Source of the DNA: an uncultured bacterium
Lineage (GTDB): Bacteria; Patescibacteriota; Minisyncoccia; Phycocordibacterales; Phycocordibacteraceae
Assembly (NCBI GenBank): GCA_903825105.1
Contig: CAIJZI010000005.1
Location: 18,821 to 82,820 of the forward strand
Reading direction: 5' to 3'
Length of the DNA stretch: 64,000 nt
Notes under the pieces: generated by a model
Database searches by the model: none
Told to the model about the DNA's origin: nothing
The model's input: only the letters and a program-made list of their open reading frames with translations
Shown here: positions 556 to 61,788 of the stretch, piece by piece
Layout: the number at the start of each line of letters is the position of its first letter
How positions within the stretch are numbered: the stretch's first letter is position 1
Translations under genes and position numbers: made by a program

Positions 556-578
556 TCTTATTTTGCTATACTGAAAGA

Positions 579-11125: not shown

Positions 11126-12943
11126 ATGGCATTACTCGATTTCCTAAATAATAAAAAAGAAAAAGAACGGGAAATAATTCCTGTGCTTCCAAAAGATATT
11201 TATAAGCAGGGAACACTAGACTTGGTAGACACTATAGCGCCAACAGCGCTTCTCGTTGGCTCGCGCGAATTACAACTGGGAGAAAAGTTTGTGCGCGCTT
11301 TTTATACCATTTCATATCCACGATTTCTTTCTGATAGTTGGTTCTCGCCGATTATAAATCTCGACAAGGTTCTCGACGCGTCTATATTCATTCACCCCGT
11401 AGAGACAGAGCAGGCGCTTCGTGGATTCCAGAAAAAAGTCGCCGAAGTACAAAGTCAAATCAGCGAGCGTGAATCAAAAGGCCTTGTGCGCGACCCAATG
11501 CTCGACACAGCATACCAAGATCTCGAGAATTTAAGAAACGACCTCCAACAGGCTCAAGAAAAGCTCTTTGATGTCGGACTCTATTTGTCACTTTATGGTG
11601 ATACGAAAGAAGAGATTGATAAAACAGAAGGGGACATACGCGGCATTCTCGACGCAAAATTGGTGTATACGAAGCCAGCACTCTTCCAACAAGAGCAGGG
11701 ATTCCGTTCCTGCCTCCCGCTCGGAACCGATGAACTTTTGGTCAATTCTAAACTAAATTCGTCGCCACTCTCTTCACTTTTCCCCTTCGTCTCTTTCGAT
11801 CTCACGAGCGACCGTGGCATTTTGTATGGTATAAACAGACACAACTCTTCGCTTGTTCTCTTCGATCGTTTCTCGCTCGAAAATTATAATTCAGTCATAT
11901 TCGCCAAATCAGGTTCTGGTAAGTCGTATGCGACGAAGCTCGAAATCTTGCGTTCGCTTATGTTTGGTACCGATGTTATTGTCATCGACCCAGAACGAGA
12001 ATATGACCAGCTCGCTGAATCGACAGGGGGTCGCTCATTTCACATCTCTCTTTCTTCAGAACATCACATCAATCCGTTTGACCTGCCTCCAGTAAAAGAG
12101 GATGAAGACCCGAAAGATATTCTGCGTTCAAACATCATCGCTCTCGTAGGGCTCTTCCGTATTATGCTTGGCGGTCTCACACCAGAAGAAGATTCTATTA
12201 TCGATCGTGCGATTAGCGAGACCTACGCACTGAAAGACATCACTGGAGACGCTGACTTTACTGGTGCCGAATCGCCGCTACTTTCAGATTTTGAACAAGT
12301 TCTTTCGGGCATGGAAGGGAGCGAGTCGCTCGTCGAGAGACTTTCGAAGTATACGCGCGGGAGCTGGTCAGGCTTTATGAATCAGCCCACCAATATCGAC
12401 CTCAAACAACAATTCGAAATTTTCTCGGTACGCGATATGGAGGATGAGCTTAAGCCAGTGGCGATGTATATCATCACACACTTCATCTGGAATGCGATAC
12501 GCAGAGAGGTTAAGAAGCGCCTGCTGGTTATCGACGAGGCGTGGTGGATGATGAAGAGCGAGGATACCGCGAGCTTCTTGTATTCACTCGCGAAGCGTGG
12601 GCGTAAATATTACATTGGGGTCTGCACCATAACACAAGAAGTTGAAGATTTCGTTAATTCACAATATGGGAGAGCGATATTGAATAATTCATCACTCCAA
12701 CTCCTATTGAAACAGTCTCCGACTTCTATTGATGCACTCCAAAATACTTTTAAATTAACCGATGAGGAAAAATATCTCTTGCTCGAAGCTGGAGTAGGGG
12801 AGGGGCTCTTCTTCGCCGGACTAAAACATGTCGCTATTAAAATCGTCGCCAGTTACACCGAAGATCAGATTATTACTTCAGACCCGTCGCAGCTTCTCGC
12901 GATAAAGGAAGAGAAGGATCGCCATGCAGCAGAACAAAAGTAG
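11126..12943 (+). CDS. VirB4/TraC-family conjugal-transfer-type ATPase (ATPase domain)
   Basis: Walker A AKSGSGKSY (~11911), Walker B LLVIDEAWWMM with VirB4-hallmark DEAW (12532..12543); 605 aa. Confidence 0.75.
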   Translation: MALLDFLNNKKEKEREIIPVLPKDIYKQGTLDLVDTIAPTALLVGSRELQLGEKFVRAFYTISYPRFLSDSWFSPIINLDKVLDASIFIHPVETEQALRGFQKKVAEVQSQISERESKGLVRDPMLDTAYQDLENLRNDLQQAQEKLFDVGLYLSLYGDTKEEIDKTEGDIRGILDAKLVYTKPALFQQEQGFRSCLPLGTDELLVNSKLNSSPLSSLFPFVSFDLTSDRGILYGINRHNSSLVLFDRFSLENYNSVIFAKSGSGKSYATKLEILRSLMFGTDVIVIDPEREYDQLAESTGGRSFHISLSSEHHINPFDLPPVKEDEDPKDILRSNIIALVGLFRIMLGGLTPEEDSIIDRAISETYALKDITGDADFTGAESPLLSDFEQVLSGMEGSESLVERLSKYTRGSWSGFMNQPTNIDLKQQFEIFSVRDMEDELKPVAMYIITHFIWNAIRREVKKRLLVIDEAWWMMKSEDTASFLYSLAKRGRKYYIGVCTITQEVEDFVNSQYGRAILNNSSLQLLLKQSPTSIDALQNTFKLTDEEKYLLLEAGVGEGLFFAGLKHVAIKIVASYTEDQIITSDPSQLLAIKEEKDRHAAEQK

Positions 12944-13589
12944 CCCCAAGTTACCGCAAAACAGAAATCGCGGCACGGTACCCAGAAGGAATAGTGGTTC
13001 TAGCCCTCCACCGACGATGACTTGGGGTAAAGCGTCGCCGGTTTTGGTAGTGGCAGTTATCTTTGATTTGGCACGAAACTTTTTCGAATGGTTTTGGCTT
13101 TTTGGGCCGGCGCTCTTCGCTGTCGGGTGTACCGCAGGGATGAATAGTTATATAGGAACGACCATCACACAGCTTTCTGGTAAGGCTGTCGCGGTAGGCT
13201 GTATGGCTCTCGCTGGAGTGGCTGGATATTTTGGCGTTGAAGTTACCGAGGGATTTGGCATTATGATGGCGGCATTTGTTGGGTTCACTGGTTTTTTAAC
13301 TTTGCTTCTTTTGATTTCAATGACCAATTCTCGTTTGTTTAAAGTAAATCCGCGCGGGATGTTTTCTTTTGTGGGAAGTTTTGGCGTATGCGAAGTTCCT
13401 TTTGTTGGAGCAATCCCAGCTTTTTCGATCAGTCTTTATTTGTTGTACCGAAGACAGATAAAAATAGAAAAAGCAGCACTCAAAGCATGGAAGAAAGAAC
13501 AGGAAGAAAATAAACAGAATGAAAGAGCTGGTCAAATCACAGAGTTTATACAAATGCGCGATGCCCAACTAGCTTATGGCGAGATATAA
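12924..13589 (+). CDS. polytopic membrane protein of T4SS-like operon (possible VirB6-like component)
   Basis: 4-5 predicted TM helices; overlaps VirB4 stop by 20 nt. Confidence 0.35.
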   Translation: MQQNKSSPKLPQNRNRGTVPRRNSGSSPPPTMTWGKASPVLVVAVIFDLARNFFEWFWLFGPALFAVGCTAGMNSYIGTTITQLSGKAVAVGCMALAGVAGYFGVEVTEGFGIMMAAFVGFTGFLTLLLLISMTNSRLFKVNPRGMFSFVGSFGVCEVPFVGAIPAFSISLYLLYRRQIKIEKAALKAWKKEQEENKQNERAGQITEFIQMRDAQLAYGEI

Positions 13590-14601
13590 TGAATCTATGC
13601 GTTTTATTTTTCCACTCGCTTTAACTCTTCTCATTCTGCCTTCTGTAGCATTCGCTCAATTTTTAGGAGGAGATGCACTTGATGAGAGCACTGCCTTCTC
13701 TGCTTCGATAGACCCACAGTATCCAGCGCCGTATACCAATGCGACACTTTCTGTTCTTTCAGCATCTCTTGACCTCGCGAATGCGACAATGAAAGTTTCT
13801 GTAAATAAAAAACAAATCTATTCTGGAAGCGTCCAAGATCTTTCTATTCGTCTTGGCGGTGCAGGGAATATGACAAAAATAGATGTGACGATTTCATCTT
13901 CTGGGAAAAGCTATACCCAAAACCTCTCTGTTCAACCACAAGATGTGGTGCTCGTAGCCGAGCCACTATCTTCTGCTCCACCACTCTACCCAGGGAAGAC
14001 ACTGGTGCCTCTCGAAGGGAGTGTGCGTGTTGTCGCTATGGCAAATCTCCGAGATACAAAAGGGAAAGCCATCGATCCTGCGACCCTCTCATACTCTTGG
14101 ACGGTTGATGAAACGAGTCTCTCAAATGCATCTGGGATTGGGAAAAGTGCGATTATTGTAGATTCCCCATTTAAGTACCGCTCGACAGATGTATCCGTGT
14201 CGATAAAGAGCCAAGACGGCTCACTTGTTGGCGGAGACTCTTTGTCGCTCGTTGCCTCTGACCCAGTCATCCGTGTGTATGAAAACGATCCACTCCTCGG
14301 TATTGTCTTTAACCGCGCCATTTCAGGAAATTATAAAATCACTTCATCTGAAGATTCGCTCTATGCCGCTCCATTCTCTATGCCAACCTCTTCTGGACTA
14401 CCGGTTATTCAATGGTTTTTAAATGGTGACCTCGCACAAACCGGAAAGACAATAACACTGCGCCCAACAGGAAGCGGGCAGGGGAGCGCTTCTCTCTCGC
14501 TCATCGCGTCTTCAGGAGAATCAACACGAGCGACTCAAGAATTCTCGCTCTCTTTTGGCGCGATACAGAGTAGCGTGCTTAATAAATTATTTGGACTATG
14601 A
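13576..14601 (+). CDS. secreted protein with signal peptide, T4SS-like operon
   Basis: MRFIFPLALTLLILPSVAFA signal peptide (alt start 13597); Ser/Thr-rich beta-type sequence. Confidence 0.4.
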   Translation: MARYNESMRFIFPLALTLLILPSVAFAQFLGGDALDESTAFSASIDPQYPAPYTNATLSVLSASLDLANATMKVSVNKKQIYSGSVQDLSIRLGGAGNMTKIDVTISSSGKSYTQNLSVQPQDVVLVAEPLSSAPPLYPGKTLVPLEGSVRVVAMANLRDTKGKAIDPATLSYSWTVDETSLSNASGIGKSAIIVDSPFKYRSTDVSVSIKSQDGSLVGGDSLSLVASDPVIRVYENDPLLGIVFNRAISGNYKITSSEDSLYAAPFSMPTSSGLPVIQWFLNGDLAQTGKTITLRPTGSGQGSASLSLIASSGESTRATQEFSLSFGAIQSSVLNKLFGL

Positions 14602-15869
14602 AAAAAATTATTTTTCTATTCTTGATTCTTTCTTTATCTCTTTCTCTCCCGCATTTTGCATTTGCACAACAAGTTGGAGAAGTTGGGGATACTTGTAAAA
14701 CACCAAACGATTGTTCTGTGGATTATTGTGTTAACAATGTTTGTAGTGCCGGAGAAGCGGGAGATGTTTGCAATGGAAATGGTGATTGCTCTGGAGATCT
14801 AACTTGTAAAAATAAAGTCTGTGCTAGTACAAGTTCCTCAAATACGCAATCAACAACACAAGCGAAAACAAATGGATTCACCGCGCTCGCGCCAATACCA
14901 GGCCTCACAGATAAATCGAGTACCGCTTTGGTAAATTCAGACAGTCTCGCAAACTTCTTTAACAATCTTTATAAATATCTTATCGGCCTCGCCGCGATCT
15001 TGGCGATTATACAGATAATGTGGGCGGGCTTTGATATGGCTTGGGAACACAAGGATTCGGTGAGTGCGATAACTGATGATAAAGGGAGGATTAAAAACGC
15101 CATTTTTGGACTTGTTCTTATCCTCTCTCCGGCCGTTATCTTCTCTATCATTAATCCAAGTATTCTGAACTTATCTATCGGCCTCCAACCGCTTGATATG
15201 TCGAAGACTACTATGGATTCAAGTGGATCTGGAACAGGTAATGATCTTTTGACACAGGACGGCAAACCTCCAATTACACAAACTAAATCAACCTCAGGAT
15301 GCGCGACAGCTACAAATGGTCCTCTGAGTGGAACTTTTTATACAACATGTACAGCTACGGATGAAAAAACCGCATCTAGCGAAGCCGCATCCTATGTGGC
15401 AGCTAATTGTCCTACAAGCGGCACGAAAACTGGAGGGGCGTATGCTGCTGTTGGATCTGATGAGAAGACAACAATGGACTCAAATAATAATATTAAAAAA
15501 TATTATTCTACATATTCTGCAAAAGCTTGGTGTAGCCAAATTATTAAAATAACTGGCGTATACCAAAAAAGTTTGATGAATTCTGAAATTTCTAATCTAA
15601 TAGGTTATTTCAACGCATCAGATGCGATTGGAAATATAAATCCTGATAAAGTGTGTGGTAATTGGTCTTTATCTGGCAGTTTTAAGGTGGATAATTTTTC
15701 ATCATCAGCTGGATTGGATAATTCAGGCGGGTATGGTTCTGACAATCTTGGTCCATGTCCTAGTGACGATTCTTTCCAGAAATGGTTTCTTGCACTTAAA
15801 GGGAAAAATGATCTATATGTACCAACATGCGGGGACACAAGCTTCTATTGCGTAATGCCTATTAATTAA
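14598..15869 (+). CDS. Cys-rich secreted protein containing a VirB2/TrbC-like hydrophobic helical hairpin
   Basis: signal peptide, Cys-rich module (CKTPNDCSVDYCVNNVC...), then LIGLAAILAIIQIMWAGFDMAW...IFGLVLILSPAVIFSII two-helix hairpin; ATGA overlap with upstream gene. Confidence 0.4.
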   Translation: MKKIIFLFLILSLSLSLPHFAFAQQVGEVGDTCKTPNDCSVDYCVNNVCSAGEAGDVCNGNGDCSGDLTCKNKVCASTSSSNTQSTTQAKTNGFTALAPIPGLTDKSSTALVNSDSLANFFNNLYKYLIGLAAILAIIQIMWAGFDMAWEHKDSVSAITDDKGRIKNAIFGLVLILSPAVIFSIINPSILNLSIGLQPLDMSKTTMDSSGSGTGNDLLTQDGKPPITQTKSTSGCATATNGPLSGTFYTTCTATDEKTASSEAASYVAANCPTSGTKTGGAYAAVGSDEKTTMDSNNNIKKYYSTYSAKAWCSQIIKITGVYQKSLMNSEISNLIGYFNASDAIGNINPDKVCGNWSLSGSFKVDNFSSSAGLDNSGGYGSDNLGPCPSDDSFQKWFLALKGKNDLYVPTCGDTSFYCVMPIN

Positions 15870-15870
15870 C

Positions 15871-17103
15871 ATGAAACGCTTCCTTCTCATCCTCATAACA
15901 CTCATCATCCTCATCGGAGTTGGGGTATTTATTTATTTCTACTTCTTCGCCAATAAAGCGACGGTTGTCGTTGCTCCTCCTGGTACGACAACACTCCCGA
16001 TCTCTGGAAATAATGGAACGACACAATCTGGTGGTGGAAATAAAAACCCAAATTCATCAGCTTCGAGTATCCCAGTGTCAGTCGCGCCGAGACTCGTCGA
16101 GATAAATGCCGGGCCGGTCGTGAATGGGGAAGTGGTGCTCGATGTTTCTATTAAAAATGCCACAACCTCTGCCTCAACTACTCCCGTAATAAGCTCGGAT
16201 GTTATCGCTAAATATATCGAGCGCGAAAGTGGCAATGTTTTTTCCTATTCAGTAAAAGACAATAAGAATACGCGCGTGAGTAATAAGACACTCCCCGGGA
16301 TTCAGTCAGCGACTTGGCTGCCAAATGGATTAACTGCATTTGTTCGTTACCTATCAGGAAATGATTTTTCTACCATAAACACCTATGCTTTCATGGCAGA
16401 TGGTTCTAACGGATTCTTTTTACAACAAAATCTCTCTAGTATCGATATCTCTTCGACGAGTGTCCTTATGCTCGCTTCTGGAGTAAATGGCTCATCAGCT
16501 TCTCTCGCGAACACCGACGGCACCAAAGCCTCAAATGTGTTCACAACACCGCTTTCACAGCTTCGTGTGTCATTCGCTGGTAAAAAATATCTCGCCTACA
16601 CCAAACCGTCTTCTGGGATAGATGGATATGCATTTATTGTTGATTCGACAGGCCACTTCTCGAGAATCGCTGGGCCCCGTAGCGGTCTTACCGCTCTCGC
16701 GAGCCCTTCTGGCGCGTGGGTACTCTTAAGTTACCCTCTCAACAACGACCTCCAAATGGAGCTCGTGAACACCTCAACAGGAGAGATTGTCTCTCTTCCG
16801 GTCGCGACTATCGCTGACAAGTGTGTATGGACGAATGATGAATCTTCTATTTATTGTGGCATCCCGACAAATGTTTCGAGTGATGCCTCGTATCCTGATG
16901 ATTGGTATCAAGGGGCGTTCCAATTTTCAGACCGAATCTGGAAGATAGATGTTTCTGGCAGATTTGCTCAACTCACACTCGACTTTTCAAGTGCGACAAA
17001 TGGAGTTTCTCTCGACGCTGTCGCTCTCTCGGTTGACCAAAATAATACCGAACTTGTTTTTATGAACAAAAACGACAACTCTCTTTGGGGCTATCAGCTC
17101 TAG
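15871..17103 (+). CDS. membrane-anchored extracytoplasmic protein, last gene of T4SS-like operon
   Basis: N-terminal TM anchor then 380 aa Ser/Thr-rich domain; no family recognised. Confidence 0.35.
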   Translation: MKRFLLILITLIILIGVGVFIYFYFFANKATVVVAPPGTTTLPISGNNGTTQSGGGNKNPNSSASSIPVSVAPRLVEINAGPVVNGEVVLDVSIKNATTSASTTPVISSDVIAKYIERESGNVFSYSVKDNKNTRVSNKTLPGIQSATWLPNGLTAFVRYLSGNDFSTINTYAFMADGSNGFFLQQNLSSIDISSTSVLMLASGVNGSSASLANTDGTKASNVFTTPLSQLRVSFAGKKYLAYTKPSSGIDGYAFIVDSTGHFSRIAGPRSGLTALASPSGAWVLLSYPLNNDLQMELVNTSTGEIVSLPVATIADKCVWTNDESSIYCGIPTNVSSDASYPDDWYQGAFQFSDRIWKIDVSGRFAQLTLDFSSATNGVSLDAVALSVDQNNTELVFMNKNDNSLWGYQL

Positions 17104-18401: not shown

Positions 18402-19754
18402 ATGGACAAGAGAAATTTACAGGAACTTTGGGAACATGTTTTGACTCAAGTTGAACTTTCTATATCTCCTGCGAATTTTAATACTTGGTTTTGTAACAGT
18501 TTCATTGTGAAGGTTACTGAAGATGGGGTAGTCCACATTGGTGTTCCAAGTCAGTTCTTCAAGGATTGGTATATGAAAAAGTTTCATACGCTCTTATTGA
18601 AAATCCTCCGTGACATTTCTTATGAGTTCAGAAACATTGAATACGCAATAGTGAAAGATGAGCGGAGAAAAGTTTTAAAAGAAACAAAGAAAGTTTCTGG
18701 CGCGATGGAGCTTCCGTTAAATGAATTTTATATTAATAAGAGCGATAACCTAAATCCGCGCTATACCTTCGATACTTTTGTTGTTGGGTCTTTCAACGAG
18801 CTTGCCTATACCGCTGCTCAAGCCGCACTCAAACGCCCTGGCATAACCTATAACCCACTTTTTATTTATGGAGATACTGGGAGAGGGAAGACGCATTTAA
18901 TACAGGCGATTGGTAATCAATTTAAAAAACAGTTCAACAGCCAAAAAGTTTTTTATCTTACTTCTGAAAAGTTTGCTATTGATTATACGGACTCTGTTCA
19001 AGCCGGAACGGCGAATCGTTTTAAAGACAAATATCGTCAGTACGATCTTCTTATTATGGATGATGTGCAGTTTCTTTCTAAAAAAGAAAAGACCCAAGAG
19101 GAACTCTTTCATTTGTTCAATGCTTTATACGATACCAATAAGCAAATTATATTCTCATCTGATCGTTCTCCTGTCGCCATTCCAGATATCGCAGAGCGCT
19201 TAAAAGGGAGACTTGCTAGTGGAATGACAGTTGATATTAGTGAGCCAGACACTGAATCTCGTATGGCGATTATTCAAAAAAAGGCGGCATTACACGGGTT
19301 TATGCTCTCAAATGATGTTGTTGAGTATGTGGCGACCTCTATAACAGGATCTATTCGTGAACTTGAAGGGATGATAAATAATATTGTCTGCCACGCCCAA
19401 GCGAAAGGGTATGCGCCAGATATTGCTGAAGTGAGACAGTCGCTTCGATCCTTCACTCGTCCACAAAAAACAATTTCGATTAAAAATGTTGTGGATAAAG
19501 TTGCTGAATTTTATGGAATTGATGAAGAGAGTATTTATGAAAAGACGCGACGAAGGGAAGTGGTGCGTCCACGCCAGGTGATTATGTATCTTCTTCGAGA
19601 AGATTTTAATATTTCATATCCAACCATTGGTTCAAAACTTGGCGGACGCGATCATACAACCGTTATCCACTCTTGTGAAAAAATAAAGCGTGAAATAGTT
19701 GGGGATGCAGATCTATCTAAAGATATACAGAGTATAAGAGCCCTACTTGTATGA
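18402..19754 (+). CDS. dnaA: chromosomal replication initiator DnaA
   Basis: 450 aa, AAA+ Walker [12 protein letters not shown]-terminal DNA-binding domain. Confidence 0.9.
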
Positions 19755-51522: not shown

Positions 51523-51562
51523 AAGCAAACGCGGCGGCCTCTGGCCGCCGCGTTTGCTTTTT
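51523..51562 (+). terminator. intrinsic terminator aagcaaacgcggcggcc-tctg-gccgccgcgtttgctt + TTT
   Basis: 17-bp stem; directly after rplK, no rplA follows. Confidence 0.7.
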
Positions 51563-51619
51563 GTCTCTCCAGCGCGTAGAGTCGATTTGGATAGTTCCAA
51601 AAATACAAAGGAGTTTATC

Positions 51620-53008
51620 ATGGCAGATGAAAGGATTTTAGGTTTGAATCATGCAGTGCGCGAGTTCCCAGGCGGATTCGTGCTTGTCCTCAACACCGGC
51701 GCAATTATCACACCCGAAGCAGAAGCGATGCTCCAGGCACTTCATTCGTGCTCGACAGGTGGTATCCGCGAGCATCTGAACACACTCGCGAACAAAGGCG
51801 CCGAGAAGTTCATGGAAAGCTTCTATGTCGGCTATGGGCACAAATCGATCGGCGATTGTGGCACGACCACAATCTTCATCGAGGGCGTGTCCATGCTGGT
51901 CGCTAAAGCGATTCAAGACTGGCTGCTCTATTCTGGTCAGGAAGCATCGACGCGATACATCGATTTCTCGAAACAGCGGTTCGTTGACCCAGTCGGTTCG
52001 GAGGAATCTAAACGGATTCTCGAAGAGTGGCGTACATTCTATCTCGCGTCTCAAGAACCGGTACGGGAGCATCTGCGCAAGCAGTTCCCGCGCAATGAAG
52101 GAGAAGACGAGGTAGTGTACGAGAAGGCAATCAAAGCGAGAAGTTTCGACATCTTGCGCGGATTTCTTCCGGCCGGCGCCTCGACCAATCTCGCGTGGCA
52201 CACTAACCTGCGCCAAGCAGCGGATCACCTGATGCTTCTTCGGCATCATCCGCTCGCTGAAGTTCGGATGGTCGCAGAAGCGATCGAGGAAGCGCTCAAA
52301 GAAGCACATCCAAGTTCATTCGTGCACAAGCGGCACGGAGAAACCGAGAGCTATAACAGCTTCTGGATGAACAACCTGTACTACTTCCTTGGCGATCCAG
52401 GAGATGAAAGTCCTCTGGTCGCCAACACTGCCGACAGTTTCTTTATGGCGTATAACTCAATCAATTCGCATTCTCTTGCAGAATACGAACTGATGATGAG
52501 AAACCGCCCACCAAAAACAGAACTGCCGAAACAGATCGCTGAAGCTGGCATGATGCAGTTCGAATTCCTCATCGACTTCGGCTCATTTCGCGATATTCAG
52601 CGTCAACGCTCAATCATTCAGCGGATGCCGCTGGTCACTGCAAGATTCGGCATGCATCCGTGGTATCTCGAATCTTTGCCGAGTTTAGAGAGAATCGACG
52701 CTGCGTTTCTTATTCAGGCGCAGATCGACGAGATCGCACAACTCGAAGCCTCTGCAGAAGTTCGGCAGTACTACTATCCGATGGGGATGTGTGTGCCGTG
52801 TCGGGTAACCGGGGATCTCGCAGCGCTTGTTTATGTGGTAGAGCTGCGGGCGCAAAAAGTTGTCCACCCAACACTTCACGAAGTGGCGCTGAAAATTGCA
52901 GACCATCTTTTGATCTGCTTCAAGAATCTCGGGCTCAAGTTATATATCGATCGCGAACAAGGGCGGTTTGATGTAAAGCGCGGGCTCCACGACATTGTTC
53001 AAAAATGA
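51620..53008 (+). CDS. thyX: ThyX-like FAD-dependent thymidylate synthase, unusually long (two ThyX-like halves)
   Basis: ARSFDILRGFLPAGASTNLAWHTNLRQAADHLMLLR and C-terminal GDLAALVYVVELRAQKVVHPTLHEVALKIADHL resemble ThyX core repeated; ATG 51620 after AAGGAG. Confidence 0.5.
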   Translation: MADERILGLNHAVREFPGGFVLVLNTGAIITPEAEAMLQALHSCSTGGIREHLNTLANKGAEKFMESFYVGYGHKSIGDCGTTTIFIEGVSMLVAKAIQDWLLYSGQEASTRYIDFSKQRFVDPVGSEESKRILEEWRTFYLASQEPVREHLRKQFPRNEGEDEVVYEKAIKARSFDILRGFLPAGASTNLAWHTNLRQAADHLMLLRHHPLAEVRMVAEAIEEALKEAHPSSFVHKRHGETESYNSFWMNNLYYFLGDPGDESPLVANTADSFFMAYNSINSHSLAEYELMMRNRPPKTELPKQIAEAGMMQFEFLIDFGSFRDIQRQRSIIQRMPLVTARFGMHPWYLESLPSLERIDAAFLIQAQIDEIAQLEASAEVRQYYYPMGMCVPCRVTGDLAALVYVVELRAQKVVHPTLHEVALKIADHLLICFKNLGLKLYIDREQGRFDVKRGLHDIVQK

Positions 53009-55609: not shown

Positions 55610-57346
55610 ATGAAAGAATTTGTCATCGATACTGACGACGAAGAAGCTTTAACAAAAATCGCGAATGGCTTGTACGAATCAGAAAAGAGAATTGCAATCG
55701 AACAAGGTCGTGGCGCAGAAGTAGAAAGAATCGGAGGTGGCGAAGGTGTTATTGAGAAATATAAAGAAGCAGTACATGAAAAGCGCGATATTCAAAAAAA
55801 GACACTCTCATCGTGGCTCGATTATTTAAAACAAAACGATGCCAACTATCCGACCTGGTTCCGCTATTTTGTTGTGCGCAATCTTGAGAAAATGGGCACG
55901 CTCGATAAAGAAAAAGGCGAATACACCAAGCGCAATGATTACACTGTCGCGCCATTCCCAGAAATTAATTCTGAAGCGCTCGGTTTCGTGTATCGAATGC
56001 TCACGACTGGTATCGGTCATCAAGAATTTGTTAACGAGCCAGAGAAACGCGAACAGTTGACACAACTTATCTCGAAAAAAGATTTTATTAAGCTCTACAC
56101 CTTCGCACAAATTGAAACCGCCGGCTCTTTGAATCGCGAATCAATGCAAGGCGAATGGGTAAAATATGATAAAGGTTCTGACTACCACATTCTCGAAAAT
56201 TCTCTTCGGGGGAAGGGTACTGGTTGGTGCACTGCCGAGGGAAGCGCCTCAAGTCATCTCCAAGGCGGCGACTTTTATGTTTATTATTCTCGTGGGAATT
56301 CAGGCACCTACAGCGAACCGCGTGTCGCGATTCGCATGGAAAATAATCAGGTTGCCGAGGTGCGCGGGGTGAATCATCGCCAAGAATTGGAACCAGCACT
56401 CGTCGATGTCGCCACAGAGAAATATCATTCCCTCCCCGGAGGAGAAAAGTTTGATAAAAAGTCTGCTGACATGAAAAAAGTAACAGAATTAGTAAAGAAA
56501 CAAGAAAAGGGCGAGCAGTTTAATAAAGATGATCTTGTTTTTCTTTATGAACTCAATGCGCTGATAGAATACTTCGGTTACGATAAAGACCCACGCATAA
56601 AAGAACTTCGCGATACGCGCGATACAAATGCTGACCTGCCAATTATCTTCGACTGCGCGCCAGAAGATGTCGCACATTCTGTTTCAGAAATTAGAGAAAC
56701 TACAAAAGCGTATGTTGGAAAACTTGAGTCGGGGATATTTGATGTGCTTCCGAGAGAGATTGAACATGTCTATACAAAATTCCCAGAAGAGCGAATGAAG
56801 TTTCATAACAATATCGAACTTGGCACAGGAATTAAAGATGGTAGTGAATTTCAAAAAACTATAGAAGAACAGGAGATGAGAGTTTCGACATACGCAGCGC
56901 AAATACTTAAAAGTCCGGATTTTAAAGTTCTGGCCGAAAATGAAAACATAGATCTCATTGAAGTATCGGTGCGTGCGCTCGGATTTGAAAAGTTGGCGAG
57001 ATATGAAGATATTTGTAAGAGAGCAAAAGAGCTCGGGCTTGAACTCTGCCCAGCTGAAGTAGGACCACAACTTCGTTTGCAGTATAAAGATCAACCGATG
57101 GGCGAATGGCTAATTGTAGCGATGAATGCAATTAGCGGCTCGGACGGTAACCCGAAGCTCTTCGATGTGGATCGGCTCGACGACGAGTTGTGGCTGAACG
57201 GCAACGATGGGAGGCCTGACAACGAGTGGAATCCCGAGAATCCTTTCGTATTTCTTCGTCCCCGCAATTCTCACCACACACTTTTAGCGAGACCGCCAAT
57301 GATTGGCGGTCTTGTTTTTTATGTTGACGCGCATTCTCGTAACTGA
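55610..57346 (+). CDS. large hypothetical cytoplasmic protein (578 aa)
   Basis: no TM, no family recognised; upstream of RelB/RelE pair. Confidence 0.4.
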   Translation: MKEFVIDTDDEEALTKIANGLYESEKRIAIEQGRGAEVERIGGGEGVIEKYKEAVHEKRDIQKKTLSSWLDYLKQNDANYPTWFRYFVVRNLEKMGTLDKEKGEYTKRNDYTVAPFPEINSEALGFVYRMLTTGIGHQEFVNEPEKREQLTQLISKKDFIKLYTFAQIETAGSLNRESMQGEWVKYDKGSDYHILENSLRGKGTGWCTAEGSASSHLQGGDFYVYYSRGNSGTYSEPRVAIRMENNQVAEVRGVNHRQELEPALVDVATEKYHSLPGGEKFDKKSADMKKVTELVKKQEKGEQFNKDDLVFLYELNALIEYFGYDKDPRIKELRDTRDTNADLPIIFDCAPEDVAHSVSEIRETTKAYVGKLESGIFDVLPREIEHVYTKFPEERMKFHNNIELGTGIKDGSEFQKTIEEQEMRVSTYAAQILKSPDFKVLAENENIDLIEVSVRALGFEKLARYEDICKRAKELGLELCPAEVGPQLRLQYKDQPMGEWLIVAMNAISGSDGNPKLFDVDRLDDELWLNGNDGRPDNEWNPENPFVFLRPRNSHHTLLARPPMIGGLVFYVDAHSRN

Positions 57347-57363
57347 TACACTTTTGGAACAGT

Positions 57364-57588
57364 ATGATTACACCAACAAAAAAGCGAATAAATATCAGTG
57401 TGTCAAAAGAAACCGATACAGCAATGATTGCTCTCGCGAAGCGTGATCGCGTCCCGCTCGCAACAAAAGCTTCTCACTTAATATCGCTCGCTCTTGAGAT
57501 TGAAGAGGATCAAGTGCTTGACGCTCTCGCATCGAAGCGCGACACACCACGAGCAAAGTTTGTTTCGCATACTCTCGCATGGCGCTAG
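57364..57588 (+). CDS. ribbon-helix-helix antitoxin (RelB/DinJ-like)
   Basis: 74 aa, INISVSKETDTAMIALAKR RHH-like N-terminus; 10-nt overlap with toxin gene. Confidence 0.55.
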   Translation: MITPTKKRINISVSKETDTAMIALAKRDRVPLATKASHLISLALEIEEDQVLDALASKRDTPRAKFVSHTLAWR

Positions 57589-57866
57589 AGTTTGAAATTG
57601 TTTATCTACAGATCGTTGTAGAGGAGGACATCCCGCATATTTCAAATGCGTGGAGAATTAAAATTAAATCAGCAATTGAAGAAAATCTTGTGATGCATCC
57701 TGATATCTACGGGAAGCCGCTCCGCAGGTCACTTCGCGGGTATAGGAAGTTGCGCGTAGGGGATTATCGAGTGGTGTTTCGTATTGATGGAGGGCGTGTA
57801 AAGATTTTTGCGATCGCGCATCGATCTGTGGTCTATAAAACACTAGAGCGAAGAATGCCAGGATAA
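57579..57866 (+). CDS. RelE/ParE-family toxin
   Basis: LRVGDYRVVFRIDGGRVKIFAIAHRSVVY signature of RelE/StbE superfamily. Confidence 0.7.
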   Translation: MALEFEIVYLQIVVEEDIPHISNAWRIKIKSAIEENLVMHPDIYGKPLRRSLRGYRKLRVGDYRVVFRIDGGRVKIFAIAHRSVVYKTLERRMPG

Positions 57867-57881
57867 TGTAATATATCTCTT

Positions 57882-60800
57882 ATGCCCGAGAAATCAGAAG
57901 TAGCAAAAAGAGAAGAAAAAATCCTAGAATTCTGGGAGCGCGAGCATATCTTCGAAAAGTCGATCGAGAAGAAATCACCCAAAGGAGAATTCGTTTTTTA
58001 TGAGGGGCCGCCAACGGCAAATGGGAAACCGGGTATTCATCACCTTGAAAGTCGCGCGTTTAAAGATGCGATTCCGCGATATAAAACAATGCGTGGCTAC
58101 CGTGTTGACCGCCGTGCGGGTTGGGACACACATGGACTACCAGTCGAATTGCAAGTTGAAAAAGAGCTCGGCTTTAATGGAAAACCCGACATAGAAAAGT
58201 ACGGCATCGCAGCATTTAATAAGAAATGTCGCGAAAGCGTTTTTGTTTATATCGATCAATGGGAAAAATTTACGAAACGCATGGGGTATTGGGTCGATGA
58301 GGATAAAGCATATTTCACTTTCGATAATTCATATATGGAAGTGCTCTGGCACCTCTTCGCGAAGACTTCAAAAGATGGCCGACTGTATAAAGATTATAAA
58401 GTAGTGCCATGGTGTCCACGCTGTGGAACAGCGCTTTCTTCACACGAACTCGCGCAGGGCTACGAAGATGTTAAAGATCTTACTATCACGGCCAAATTTG
58501 AATTAATTGATGAACCAGGGACATATCTCCTCGCATGGACGACAACGCCGTGGACTCTGCCGGGTAATATCGCGCTCGCGGTTGGCGAGAATATTGAGTA
58601 TGTAGAGATTCTTGTAGAAAATGAAAAATACATTCTCGCTAAAAATCGTCTCCCAATTATCACCACCCCATACACTATTCAGAAAGAGTTAAAAGGGAAA
58701 GATCTTGTTGGTAAAAAATATAAGCCACTCTACGATGTTGCAAAAAGTGTTGCGGCAGAAAGTGAAAAAGCAAAATTTGATAAAGCGTTTCAGGTTTATG
58801 CTGCAGACTTTGTAACGACTGAAGAGGGGACAGGGATCGTTCACACTGCAGTGATGTATGGGCAAGAAGATTTTGAATTGGGAAATAAAATTGGGTTACC
58901 TAAAGTACATTTGGTAAATCCAGAAGGAAAATTTATTGAAGGGGTGGGCGTTCTCGCCGGCTGCTCGGTTGTCGAAGAACAAACATCAGTTGAAATACTA
59001 AAAGATCTGTCCGAGCGAAATATCCTTTTCAAAAAAGAACCCTACACACACAGTTACCCATTTTGTTGGAGGTGTAAAACACGGCTTATCTATTATGCTC
59101 GTGATTCGTGGTATATACGTATGTTTGACCTGCGCGAAAAGCTTGTTGCAGAAAATAAAAAGATACACTGGGAGCCAGAGTATATTCGCGATGGTCGCAT
59201 GGGCGAGTGGCTCACCAACGCAAAAGATTGGGCTATTAGCCGCGAACGCTATTGGGGGACACCATTGCCGATTTGGCGCAGTGCGGATGGAAGTGAGCAA
59301 GTCGTCATCGATTCTGTCGATGATCTTAAGAAATACACCAAAAAATCGGGGAATAAATATTTCGGGATGCGCCACAGCGGGACTGAATATAATGCGAAGT
59401 ATATCGCGAGCGCGACAGCGACGGCCCCAGACCATGTCACCGAAGCAGGGAAGGATGGTATTCGCGCAGCAGCCGAAAAGCTCAAAGACAAAAAAATAAC
59501 AAAAATAATCTGCTCACCTTTTGTGAGAACAAAAGAAACGGCAGAAATCGTGGCGAAAGAAATCGGTTACCCGATTGATCAGATTGTTGTTGATGAGAGA
59601 ATTCGCGAATACAACTTCGGTGATTTTGATCAGAAATCACGCACTCTTTATGATGTGTGGCGAAAAGAGAATCCAGATTTATCTGTGGCGCCTCCACACG
59701 GAGAGTCATACGCTGATGCAAGACGGCGCGCAGCTGAATTTATGTATGACACGGAGCAAAAGTATCAGAATGAAAATATTCTCTTTGTCTCGCACGGCAT
59801 TGTATTTGAAGCACTCCCGTCCGTTCTCCGTGGTGATGATGCGAAAACAACCAATGAAAAATGGGGCGCAGATTTTTTACATTGGGCAGATGTGAAAGAA
59901 TATAATTTTGTTCCACTTCCGCACAATGATGACTATGAGCTCGATTTGCACCGGCCATATATCGACGAGGTCATTTTAATTTCAGAAAAGGGAACTGAAC
60001 TGCGAAGAGTGAAGGAGGTGATGGATGTGTGGTTTGACTCTGGTGCGATGCCCTTCGCACAATCAGCAAAAGAACGCGGAGATGAACCACTCGAGTCTTT
60101 CTTAAAAAAAGTTGAATACCCAGCTGACTTTATATCAGAAGCAATTGATCAAACGCGTGGCTGGTTCTACACCCTCCTTGCAGTCGGAACGCTCTTTGGG
60201 CGTGACGCCGCTTTTAAAAATGTTATTTCACTCGGACACCTTCTTGATGCAGAGGGCCAGAAAATGAGTAAATCAAAAGGAAATGTTGTCGATCCGTGGG
60301 CCGAGATGGATAAGTGGGGTGTTGATACTCTGCGCTTTTGGATGTACAGCGTCACTCAAGCTGGCGATTCTAAAAATTATGATCAAAAAACAGTCAAAGA
60401 AGCGGCGAGAGTGCTCACTTGGATAGAAAATAGTGTAAAGTTTTATGAATTATTTAAAACCGAAACAGCAAATGCTTCTGTCTCTACAAATGTGTTAGAT
60501 AAATGGATCGATGCGCGTACAGAAGAGACTGTTTCGATTGTTGAAAGTGCTATGGATGAATATCGTTTATTTGAAGCGACACGCGCGATTGCAGATCTCA
60601 CAGGTGATCTCTCTCAGTGGTATGTTAGACGCGTTCGTGACCGTGTGCGAGATGGAGACGCGACAGCAATCGAGACTCTTCGAAGAACCTTAAGAACTTT
60701 AGCTCTCATTTTGGCTCCGTTCGCTCCGTTTATCGCCGAAGAGGTGTTCCAAGAGGTGCGTGAAGAGGGCGATCCAGAGAGTGTGCACCTCGCTGGTTGG

Positions 60801-61259
60801 CCCTCCTCCGCCAAGGCTTCGAAGGGCACAGCCTGGTTTCCCAATATTTTCTCGAAAGAAACCAATGACAATTTAATTGCCGAAATGCAAAAAGTGCGTG
60901 CGCTCGCTTCAGAAGCATTACAGCTACGCCAAAAGTCAGGAATGAAAGTGCGTCAACCACTCGCTTCGCTCACGGTCCCTACGCAGCTCTCTGAAGAGTT
61001 GGCGGCAATTCTCGCTGATGAAGTAAATGTAAAAAAAATAATCGCAGGCACTGAATTGGCGTTAGACACTGCTCTTACCCCAGAACTTATTAAAGAAGGC
61101 GACGAGCGCGAGCTGTCGCGTGCGGTCGCTGAGGCGAGAAAGACAGAAGGGCTCTCCCCGCGTGATAAAGCGCATGCAGAAATGAGTGAGGAAGGGAAGT
61201 ATGAAGTGACACTATCTACCGGTGTCGCTCACTTCAATCTGGTCAGAGATGCGGCATAA
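57882..61259 (+). CDS. ileS: isoleucine--tRNA ligase (type 2) with inserted histidine-phosphatase-like domain
   Basis: [16 protein letters not shown] region, KMSKS, editing domain; about 170 extra aa (approx 59310..59945) with RHSG / [10 protein letters not shown] / VSHG motifs. Confidence 0.8.
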
Positions 61260-61788
61260 ATATGACACTTGTGGCATCGTCTTGGCTCGCACTGCAGTTG
61301 GCGAAGCGAATGACTCAATAGCGATTTTGACACAGGAGGTCGGCCTCGTGCGCGCTCGCGCTCAGGGGGTGCGAAAGTCTGGTGCGAAGCTCGCCCACGC
61401 ACTTACCACCTTCACAGAAAGCGAGGTCGTCTTGGTACAAGGGAAAGAATATTGGCGCATCGCGGGCGCCGTTTTAAAAGAAAATTGGTTTTTGCGTATG
61501 TCTCGCGCTGAGACGCGCACGCGCGCAGCGCGCGTAGCGAACTTACTTTTGCGCCTCGTCGCAGGCGAGACGCGCGACTCGGCGCTCTTTGAAATTATTA
61601 GAAACTTTTTTGAATCGCTCGTGACTCTCTCTGAAGAGAAGCACGAACAAGCTGAAATCCTCACCGTGCTCGGCATTCTCGCTGCACTCGGGCTCGATAC
61701 GGGAGAGATCCCAGAAGAAATAAAAGAAGGGAATTATACCAGCTACATACGCAGAATTAACCGAGGCATCGAAGCGTCAGGGCTGTAA
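61249..61788 (+). CDS. recO: DNA repair protein RecO
   Basis: [19 protein letters not shown]...[19 protein letters not shown] fold start of RecO. Confidence 0.7.

Follow-up and report, generated by a model that had tools for sequence, protein, structure and literature searches.

The window analysed here, a stretch of 64,000 nucleotides from an uncultured bacterium of the candidate phyla radiation (CPR; Patescibacteriota in GTDB), carries a gene for isoleucyl-tRNA synthetase (IleRS), ileS, in which a second enzyme domain, a histidine phosphatase, is nested within the catalytic domain of the synthetase. The strongest fact about this arrangement comes from beyond the window sequence: related genomes encode this phosphatase as a gene of its own, which immediately precedes ileS. 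We propose that the nested gene is the fused form of a two-component system, in which an IleRS is partnered by a dedicated and catalytically competent histidine phosphatase whose substrate would be a nucleotide-type by-product, and we put the probability of this reading a little above even, at roughly 0.55. The features on which the argument draws are collected in Table 1.

Apart from the insertion, the window gene is an intact type-2 IleRS gene, and very probably the working housekeeping one of the cell. Its product scores 811 bits against the NCBIfam ileS equivalog model TIGR00392 (cutoff 621.4), its best relatives in a sequence search of the PDB are all IleRSs, and it matches IleRS2 of P. 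megaterium (PDB 8c8w) with E=2e-214. The Pfam domains follow in the order tRNA-synt_1, His_Phos_1, remaining synthetase and Anticodon_1; tRNA-synt_1 (E=1.4e-112) is matched in two stretches, of which the first (aa 13-488) covers positions 1-269 of the 414 in the profile and the second resumes past His_Phos_1, Anticodon_1 is matched at aa 873-1027, and a match to DUF5915 is weak and below threshold (25.1 bits, cutoff 27). The cysteines of connective peptide 1 (CP1; CPRC/CWRC) are present, as are PIW at aa 463-465 and, in the C-terminal part, HRPYID (aa 690-695), DVWFDSG and DQTRGWF. That the protein aminoacylates tRNA(Ile) is supported indirectly, by its being the sole IleRS gene in the window and by its position in a conserved housekeeping locus. 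Two specialised identities were rejected. The MupA/MupB models (NF000257/NF000258) give 688 and 707 bits against 1900, which reflects only a general type-2 scaffold in common, and the model for IleRS with an N-acetyltransferase (GNAT) domain (NF040702) gives 313 bits against 1999, the window protein having no GNAT domain.

Two features of the synthetase are worth recording beside its identity. Among homologs of the window protein, H54 of the class I signature is invariant and H53 is at least 90% conserved. The GXHH form of this signature has been shown experimentally to give IleRS2 hyper-resistance to mupirocin (PMC10485003) and, because both histidines are conserved across the clade, the fused clade is predicted to be intrinsically mupirocin hyper-resistant. 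Furthermore, the zinc-knuckle cysteines of connective peptide 2 (CP2; CxxC...CxC) are missing from the window protein (59277-59339 and 59967-60023); deeper fused lineages (P0360, P0361, P0376 and P0387) still have them flanking the module, and an insert-free IleRS (L086) has them too.

The nested module itself is matched by the Pfam hidden Markov model (HMM) PF00300 (His_Phos_1) at aa 496-651 with E=2.5e-27 and 96.2 bits, against a gathering score of 21.7. Residues 8-486 of the window protein align to 11-478 of 8c8w and residues 681-1114 to 480-907, and because the alignment stops at 478 and restarts at 480, we conclude that 194 residues were inserted cleanly at a single point. This point is a loop of the CP2 zinc knuckle within the IleRS catalytic domain, and the insert has the same base composition as the remainder of the gene. 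A sequence-only reading of the window had already proposed an IleRS with an inserted histidine-phosphatase domain resembling phosphoglycerate mutase, and the HMM match, the structure-based boundaries, the fold and the conservation all bear this out. The extra block had been placed correctly, at approximately 59310..59945, inside which 59340-59921 falls, and its length had been underestimated at about 170 residues. The motifs quoted for it are all present between PIW and HRPYID, namely RHSGTEYN at 497-504, a 14-residue motif at 544-557 and VSHG at 636-639, and alignment to IleRS references together with the PF00300 match excludes a normal connective-peptide segment, since the RHG/SHG constellation is there.

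Structure prediction places the module among the small phosphatases of its superfamily. Modelled with short flanks and without the rest of the synthetase, the insert forms a confident domain (pLDDT 91.2, pTM 0.89), and the predicted structure shows an independently folding domain like those of PhoE, CobC and GpgP. The best Foldseek matches are Rv2419c GpgP, PhoE/YhfR, PspA, CobC and the riboflavin-pathway phosphatase HFP, with a probability of 1.00 for PhoE, GpgP and CobC. Small-molecule phosphatases of about 200 residues fit the model best, with target-normalised TM scores of 0.70-0.77 and root-mean-square deviations (rmsd) of 2.5-3 A, and mutases of 230-250 residues fit it less well (0.55-0.66 and 4-10 A); a PDB sequence search with the module agrees that small-molecule phosphatases are closest, and the cap helix typical of these enzymes is retained in the model. 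None of the curated NCBIfam phosphatase subfamily models reaches its cutoff with the window protein. Both the alpha-ribazole phosphatase CobC (TIGR03162; 70-74 bits, cutoff 162.9) and the phosphohistidine phosphatase SixA (TIGR00249; 24.9 bits, cutoff 74.5) were rejected as identities. The full-length AlphaFold model is poor (pLDDT 63.8, pTM 0.43, with the HUP core below 50).

The nested architecture is the rule in Paceibacteria-type Patescibacteria. An identical protein is encoded on a 91-kb public contig (P0001), and the nearest homolog of the window protein is 71-73% identical. Both PF00300 and the IleRS domains are found in 120 of the 120 listed homologs (64-100% identity), and a second list, of 120 homologs of a far more remote member (46-64% identity), shows both in every entry; the sources are named as Patescibacteria, Paceibacterota, Kaiser-, Vogel- and Pacebacteria and Minisyncoccia. 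Since the identical protein occurs on a public contig and all listed homologs share the architecture, an assembly artefact is ruled out. When a single genome was scanned for each GTDB species, at least 414 relatives were recovered, of which the best 80 all span junction, module and junction; these 80 species-representative loci also underlie our counts of synteny and of extra copies. The search of related genomes recovered the same insertion in all of these homologs and loci, and the view that the fusion is unusual stands for life as a whole and fails within this large clade, where, with 240 of 240 listed homologs and the 80 loci, it is the norm. The taxon labels on many of the metagenome-assembled genome records are unreliable, and many records among the 80 loci are titled 'uncultured Candidatus Saccharibacteria bacterium' and one 'Bacillota bacterium', which are probably such labels.

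The closest relatives that are not embedded are proteins of about 190 residues, which start with M..KN.YF.LRHG, end just past the last strand and align with the window module over its full length. Some short 'standalone' entries in the databases are fragments of fused genes, and the true standalone members were examined in their genomic context. For six of seven of these, ileS is a neighbour. Five (P0250, P0216, P0242, P0258 and P0267) immediately precede ileS and are read in the same direction, with spacers of 1-31 nt, P0220 lies between argS and a convergent ileS, and P0181 lies elsewhere; the usual order is argS-phosphatase-ileS-recO, and the phosphatase-ileS pair is retained where the linkage to argS is broken (L085). 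The neighbouring IleRSs have no insert, are 931-955 residues long and align across ..486 / 688.. of the window protein, which would itself measure 931 residues without its module. A metagenome scan with an alignment of the true standalone members recovered 80 further loci, in which the phosphatase is directly upstream of ileS (56), nested (11), farther from an ileS (5), without an ileS nearby (6) or unjudgeable (2), the spacers here being approximate because they are extrapolated from tblastn matches. It is therefore adjacent or nested at 67 of the 78 evaluable loci (86%), and the link between phosphatase and ileS is shown across hundreds of assemblies. The one standalone phosphatase that is not next to ileS (L081:204-5354) sits beside a defence-like island with AbiEii, NERD, MazG-like, Schlafen-type helicase and DUF3800 genes.

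No additional standalone copy was found in the 80 nested-type loci or in the window, a statement that concerns the loci only. Split and fused forms are thus in complementary distribution, which is a 'Rosetta stone' signal of functional partnership, and we consider it probable that the phosphatase is functionally coupled to IleRS. We propose a subfamily, the 'IleRS-associated histidine phosphatase', which would comprise units of about 190 residues with the pattern N-x-Y-F-x-x-R-H-G ... G-E-x-R-x-L/F that lie directly upstream of ileS or nested in it, as the window module does. The N-x-Y of the junction was considered as an IleRS-specific interface and rejected, as it is conserved equally among standalone members.

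The catalytic residues of the module have been kept while the sequence around them diverged. Across 49 homologs of the window protein, R497, H498, R549, E576, E608, R616 and H638 are invariant, and yet no part of the protein evolves faster than the module, with a mean frequency of the top residue of 0.55 as against 0.86-0.91 in the HUP/Rossmann core. The same holds for a far wider set of about 100 embedded modules, taken as clusters at 50% identity and only about 33% identical to each other, in which modules of complete sequence retain the whole R-H-R-E-H pentad. The RH of the RHG motif is kept in all 94 modules (of 102) that cover that column, the column of E576 holds E in 96 of 99 and D in the remaining 3, and that of H638 holds H in 96 of 97. 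Every complete copy in proteins with several modules likewise keeps the pentad. Because the pentad is intact amid this fast divergence, we believe that selection has acted on catalysis, and that neither decay nor a purely structural role would account for the pattern. Judged from these residues, the module is very probably an active phosphatase. An inactive structural insertion, one of the roles that had been entertained from the sequence, is accordingly disfavoured; another, participation in amino-acid editing, lacks support in view of the undamaged canonical motifs of the CP1 editing domain. The third such role, nucleotide hydrolysis, may yet apply.

The window represents only one of several ways in which this phosphatase has entered IleRS. 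An exhaustive HMMER search with the module alone returned 6471 relatives, and IleRS is the host protein for about 91 of the 150 top-scoring cluster representatives. Insertion sites were set by HMM and TIGR00392 coordinates, since pairwise MAFFT mapping is misleading where the modules align to each other. The four sites (A to D, Table 1) are surface loops, spread over CP2, the second half of the Rossmann fold and the beginning of the anticodon-binding domain, and site B occurs on its own in Candidatus Peregrinibacteria, another CPR class. In the 121 IleRSs around a Peregrinibacteria site-B protein we found no module in 43, site A in 26, tandem A+A' in 23, B in 17, A+C in 10, A+B in one and C in one. 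Two tandem modules, or modules at sites B, C and D, occur in P0122, P0147, P0177, P0241, P0257, P0264, P0439 and P0458, with four modules in P0122. In two-module proteins, the first modules are 51% alike across proteins and the second 41-48%, as against about 30% for the pair within a protein; as like-placed modules resemble each other across proteins, the doubled state is old, with both copies kept intact. A tree of embedded and standalone domains adds little to this history, the identities being saturated (about 33% between embedded modules and about the same between embedded and standalone ones) and the neighbour-joining tree showing no resolved embedded clade.

Other enzymes are nested in CPR IleRSs as well. 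NUDIX domains with an intact Nudix box occupy loops of the CP1/editing region in P0447 (aa 223-327) and P0419 (aa 227-326), and the latter carries a phosphatase (aa 689-845) on the same chain. A GNAT acetyltransferase is nested in a loop of the same region in P0434 (aa 293-400) and another is borne by P0203. Transposases of the IS200/RAYT-type Y1 family lie in frame in the editing-domain region of P0479 (aa 362-486), P0203 (aa 326-472), P0468, P0480 and P0503, which represent several independent clusters, and P0203 meets the NCBIfam cutoff for REP-associated tyrosine transposase (81.3, cutoff 80). The phosphatase itself has been fused to one other partner, the L-threonylcarbamoyladenylate synthase TsaC/Sua5 (P0190, L092:977-2140; TIGR00057 146.8, cutoff 123.2).

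Based on the chemistry of the superfamily, we propose a model for the action of the module. H498 would attack the terminal phosphate of the substrate to form a phospho-histidine intermediate, with R497, R549 and H638 holding the phosphate and E576 protonating the leaving group. The substrate would be a small nucleotide-type phosphate that is made or bound while IleRS carries out its adenylate chemistry, for instance AMP, pyrophosphate or a breakdown product of ApnA, and tethering would keep both activities close and in a 1:1 stoichiometry. A nucleotide-type substrate is favoured because the enzymes closest in fold act on small molecules and the cap helix appears to be kept in the module, because the sole other fusion partner observed, TsaC, is also an enzyme that turns ATP into an acyl-adenylate and pyrophosphate, and because sister IleRSs harbour NUDIX domains, whose reaction is the cleavage of nucleotide pyrophosphate bonds. 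In addition, the embedded modules lack the basic character of RNA-binding modules (median pI 6.1, net charge -2.5), which argues against direct RNA binding and again favours a nucleotide. That the substrate is indeed a specific nucleotide or by-product remains a tentative proposal, one that we would sooner expect to be revised than kept. As for the origin of the nested form, a tandem duplication of phosphatase and ileS, followed by deletions that left the 5' part of ileS, the phosphatase and the 3' part of ileS, may have been the route; this would account for the insertion of a whole gene-sized unit and for the use of several loops.

Several observations weigh against our reading. The window has RH-S (aa 499, 59376-59378, codon AGC) where 98% of 49 close homologs have RH-G, the serine being confined to the window protein; AGC is one transition from GGC, and the change could be a real one of the lineage, with lower activity, or a sequencing error. 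In Peregrini- and Gracilibacteria, some IleRSs carry the module and close relatives of theirs lack it (43 of the 121 have none), and two insert-free ileS genes have no His_Phos gene adjacent, so the module is not essential to IleRS function. Adjacency in an operon need not mean a common function in compact CPR genomes, as argS and recO are neighbours too. The nesting of unrelated GNAT and Y1 transposase domains suggests that IleRS may be merely permissive of insertions. The TsaC-phosphatase fusion was seen in one cluster only, on a contig of 3.7 kb. P0186 (L175:5001-5870, 289 aa, eight contigs) is a module with flanks like the CP2 knuckle of IleRS (SLEELKKKIKISGN; LPHNKNFEL..CSQCGG) in a nonulosonic-acid-type cluster with UDP-GlcNAc 2-epimerase, NeuB and CMP-sugar synthetase; it looks like a module that was excised from ileS and reused elsewhere, and its presence in a NeuB-type sugar cluster implies that the module can serve outside IleRS. 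An IleRS-facing interface was sought on the surface of the phosphatase and none could be defined, the surface being poorly conserved and the full-length model having a pTM of 0.43. The function of the module is, moreover, inferred throughout.

Much of this would suit a module that is an autonomous small-molecule phosphatase, metabolic or house-cleaning, with no mechanistic link to aminoacylation, captured repeatedly from its chance position beside ileS in a compact housekeeping operon into permissive loops of a large, essential and well-expressed protein. The closest folds and HMMs are indeed those of generic small-molecule phosphatases, the surface evolves fast, presence is patchy in Peregrini- and Gracilibacteria, with insert-free ileS genes that have no phosphatase beside them, NUDIX domains are nested in CPR IleRSs alongside GNAT and Y1 transposases, a module with relic IleRS flanks was recruited to a NeuB/CMP-sugar cluster, and the syntenic block holds functionally unrelated genes. 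Nevertheless, we consider this explanation unlikely, though it deserves to be taken seriously. The subfamily is beside or inside ileS at about 86% of the metagenome loci and at 6/7 in the separate look-ups, the pair persists without linkage to argS, the split and nested forms are complementary, and neutral capture of the same neighbour is not expected to recur at four or more sites in two CPR classes. A macromolecular substrate has also to be weighed, with the module acting in cis as a repair or regulatory phosphatase on a 3'-end phosphate of tRNA(Ile), left for instance by damage like that from tRNA-pyrophosphorylating toxins, or on an inhibitory phosphate of IleRS, for example at the KMSKS serines, much as HipA/HipT kinases phosphorylate other synthetases. 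Linkage to one synthetase only and the location of all nesting sites in or beside the catalytic half would fit such a role, and the NUDIX and phosphatase domains of P0419 would suit a two-step removal of a 3'-pyrophosphate. Branch-1 histidine phosphatases are, besides, able to act on phosphoproteins; sensor kinases are targets of MutT1 (PMC12407098), and Ndk is a target of SixA (PMC12934123). We nonetheless regard it as improbable, given modules that are not basic, a cap helix of the small-molecule type in a predicted fold whose best structural matches are small-molecule enzymes, the lack of a conserved kinase or toxin gene near the 80 nested-type loci, two to four tandem copies that are hard to square with a single site, and a TsaC fusion that misfits a role at a tRNA end or an IleRS phosphoserine.

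A pseudo-enzyme that only binds a ligand, or that has taken over from the lost zinc knuckle in stabilising CP2, would agree with the loss of the CP2 cysteines in the window lineage, when deeper lineages keep them, and with RHS in place of RHG. It is very unlikely, as pseudo-enzymes normally lose residues such as these, which almost every one of the roughly 100 diverged modules has kept, and as lineages that keep the zinc knuckle carry the module too. We give least credence to the module being the cell's cofactor-dependent phosphoglycerate mutase (dPGM), although the JGI name of P0482 is 'isoleucyl-tRNA synthetase/bisphosphoglycerate-dependent phosphoglycerate mutase' and the archaeal dPGM model NF038349 is matched below its threshold (69 against 225). 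The classical dPGM model PRK01295 (NF002339) gives 30.5 against 316 and TIGR01258 is unmatched, the module of about 190 residues lacks the extra segment of the 230-250-residue mutases, to whose fold it compares less well, and its SHG is followed by I, A or L, whereas the mutase motif is SHGN.

The window protein belongs to the same family as the type-2 IleRSs of known structure (PmIleRS2, 8c8u/8c8v/8c8w; T. thermophilus, 1ile), with which it has in common the order HUP, CP1/editing, CP2 and anticodon-binding domains, and it has the GXHH variant studied in PmIleRS2. It differs in its 194-residue enzyme domain between the equivalents of residues 478 and 480 and in the loss of the CP2 zinc cysteines. 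The module has the predicted fold, catalytic residues and length (about 190-210 residues) of the short branch-1 phosphatases PhoE/YhfR (1h2e, 1ebb), GpgP Rv2419c (4pz9), CobC (6nru, 6e4b), PspA (4ij5/6) and HFP (9mmh); it is 20-25% identical to them and, in contrast, is nested in or adjoins an aminoacyl-tRNA synthetase. Fusions of histidine phosphatases to enzymes of nucleotides or nucleic acids have precedents in mycobacterial MutT1, a NUDIX and histidine phosphatase pairing that recurs in P0419, and in the Rv2228c-type RNase H/acid phosphatase (PRK07238), whose model is among the best NCBIfam matches of the window protein. Both of these are end-to-end fusions with other partners, whereas the window module lies inside a loop of the catalytic domain of the synthetase. 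IleRS with an N-acetyltransferase domain (NF040702) is a precedent for an extra enzyme domain, albeit a different one. The classical hydrolytic domain nested in the Rossmann fold and cooperating with the synthetic site is the CP1 editing domain of IleRS, ValRS and LeuRS; that domain is universal, has another fold and deacylates mischarged tRNA, whereas the phosphatase is lineage-specific, lies in CP2 and is predicted to act on phosphate esters.

In the literature searched, we came across no account of an aminoacyl-tRNA synthetase with a histidine phosphatase inside it or reserved for it, and the module goes unmentioned in a 2026 survey of 96,219 IleRS sequences and in another recent IleRS2 paper. 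Both domain families, and synthetases with extra domains, are already known; the phosphatase partnered with IleRS is previously undescribed. Database labels are automatic only, with most fused proteins named 'class I tRNA ligase family protein' by NCBI. Because of this name and the JGI name given above, metabolic reconstructions of CPR bacteria could miss IleRS or miscount a glycolytic enzyme.

Table 1. Positions of the features of the nested ileS gene, the genes inserted upstream of it and the nesting sites.
Feature	Position	Strand	Remark or basis
Complete open reading frame (ORF), type-2 IleRS with nested histidine phosphatase	57882..61259	+	1125 aa, uninterrupted
IleRS N-terminal part, aa 1-486: first HUP/Rossmann half, CP1 and editing domain, first half of CP2 knuckle	57882..59339	+	Alignment to 8c8w 11-478
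Class I signature as G-I-H-H (GXHH, not HXGH), aa 51-54	58032..58043	+	Sequence
Editing motif WTTTPWT	58536-58556	+	Sequence
Editing motif GTGIVHTA	58827-58850	+	Sequence
Nested branch-1 histidine phosphatase module, aa 487-680, 194 aa	59340..59921	+	PF00300, 8c8w alignment
R497-H498 of RHG motif (RHS here); H498 predicted phospho-accepting nucleophile	59370..59375	+	Superfamily mechanism
R549, second phosphate-binding arginine (SPxxRTxxTA motif)	59526..59528	+	Invariant
E576, predicted general acid/base	59607..59609	+	Invariant in 49 homologs
H638 of SHG motif, second catalytic histidine	59793..59795	+	Invariant in 49 homologs
IleRS C-terminal part, aa 681-1125: second half of CP2 knuckle, second HUP half, anticodon-binding domains	59922..61259	+	Alignment to 8c8w 480-907
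KMSKS, aa 794-798	60261-60275	+	Sequence; invariant among homologs
578-aa ORF between argS and ileS	within 55610-57866		G+C 0.39-0.43, lower; no family match
ParD/ParE-type toxin-antitoxin pair between argS and ileS	57364-57588, 57579-57866		
Nesting site A (that of the window)	TIGR00392 profile ~506		
Nesting site B, between WFDSG and DQTRGWF	TIGR00392 profile ~558-559		
Nesting site C	start of anticodon-binding domain		
Nesting site D	upstream of WxISR motif		

The window is otherwise that of an ordinary CPR chromosome, with dnaA, polA, recJ, comEC, PBP1, a type-IV-secretion-like cluster and eight tRNAs. Across the 80 genomes, the ileS block is conserved and comprises genes for serine hydroxymethyltransferase (SHMT), ThyA/ThyX, dUTPase, thymidylate kinase (Tmk), ArgRS, IleRS, RecO, a surface protein and a class II synthetase; a conserved kinase, toxin or partner gene was not found around nested-type ileS at these loci, only this housekeeping synteny. 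In related genomes nothing, or nothing but the phosphatase gene, lies between argS and ileS, and the genes that intervene between them in the window (55610-57866) look like a small insertion into the conserved block. Downstream, the recO ORF (61222-61788, RecO_N) has a GTG start 38 nt before the ileS stop, so that either the two reading frames overlap or recO really begins at a later codon. The ThyX homolog (51554-53008, 484 aa) has a Thy1 domain at aa 57-254 and about 230 C-terminal residues without a family match. The type-IV-secretion-like cluster (11126-17100 and 18402-19754), a few kb from dnaA, includes a TraG/VirB4-like ATPase, two unmatched ORFs and a 423-aa protein within which lies a TrbC/VirB2-type pilin domain. 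In a different genome, a 191-aa HD-domain phosphohydrolase gene (L090:8231-8806) lies about 95 nt downstream of an insert-free ileS of the Peregrinibacteria type. Its position may be fortuitous, or its product may be a partner analogous to the phosphatase; its identification as an analogous Ap4A hydrolase was rejected, the match being to a generic HDIG domain only.

We suggest, tentatively and against our own doubts, that the IleRS of CPR bacteria needs a dedicated accessory phosphohydrolase of a kind undescribed for any aminoacyl-tRNA synthetase, that the two are coupled closely enough for the partner gene to have moved repeatedly inside ileS, into several loops and in up to four copies, and that CPR IleRS is a scaffold that collects house-cleaning or defence enzymes such as histidine phosphatase, NUDIX and GNAT. 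The task of such a phosphohydrolase would be, for example, the clearance of adenylate-derived nucleotides or the repair of a phosphorylated tRNA(Ile) 3' end or synthetase. The series of split, nested and multi-copy forms is an unusually clear natural record of a neighbouring gene turning into an internal domain, and it shows at which loops a class I synthetase tolerates the insertion of whole enzymes, which is useful for protein engineering. If our reading is true, the window gene encodes a new kind of bifunctional aminoacyl-tRNA synthetase together with a synthetase-specific partner enzyme, and there would be an unrecognised step tied to isoleucine charging in a huge and uncultivated branch of the bacteria.

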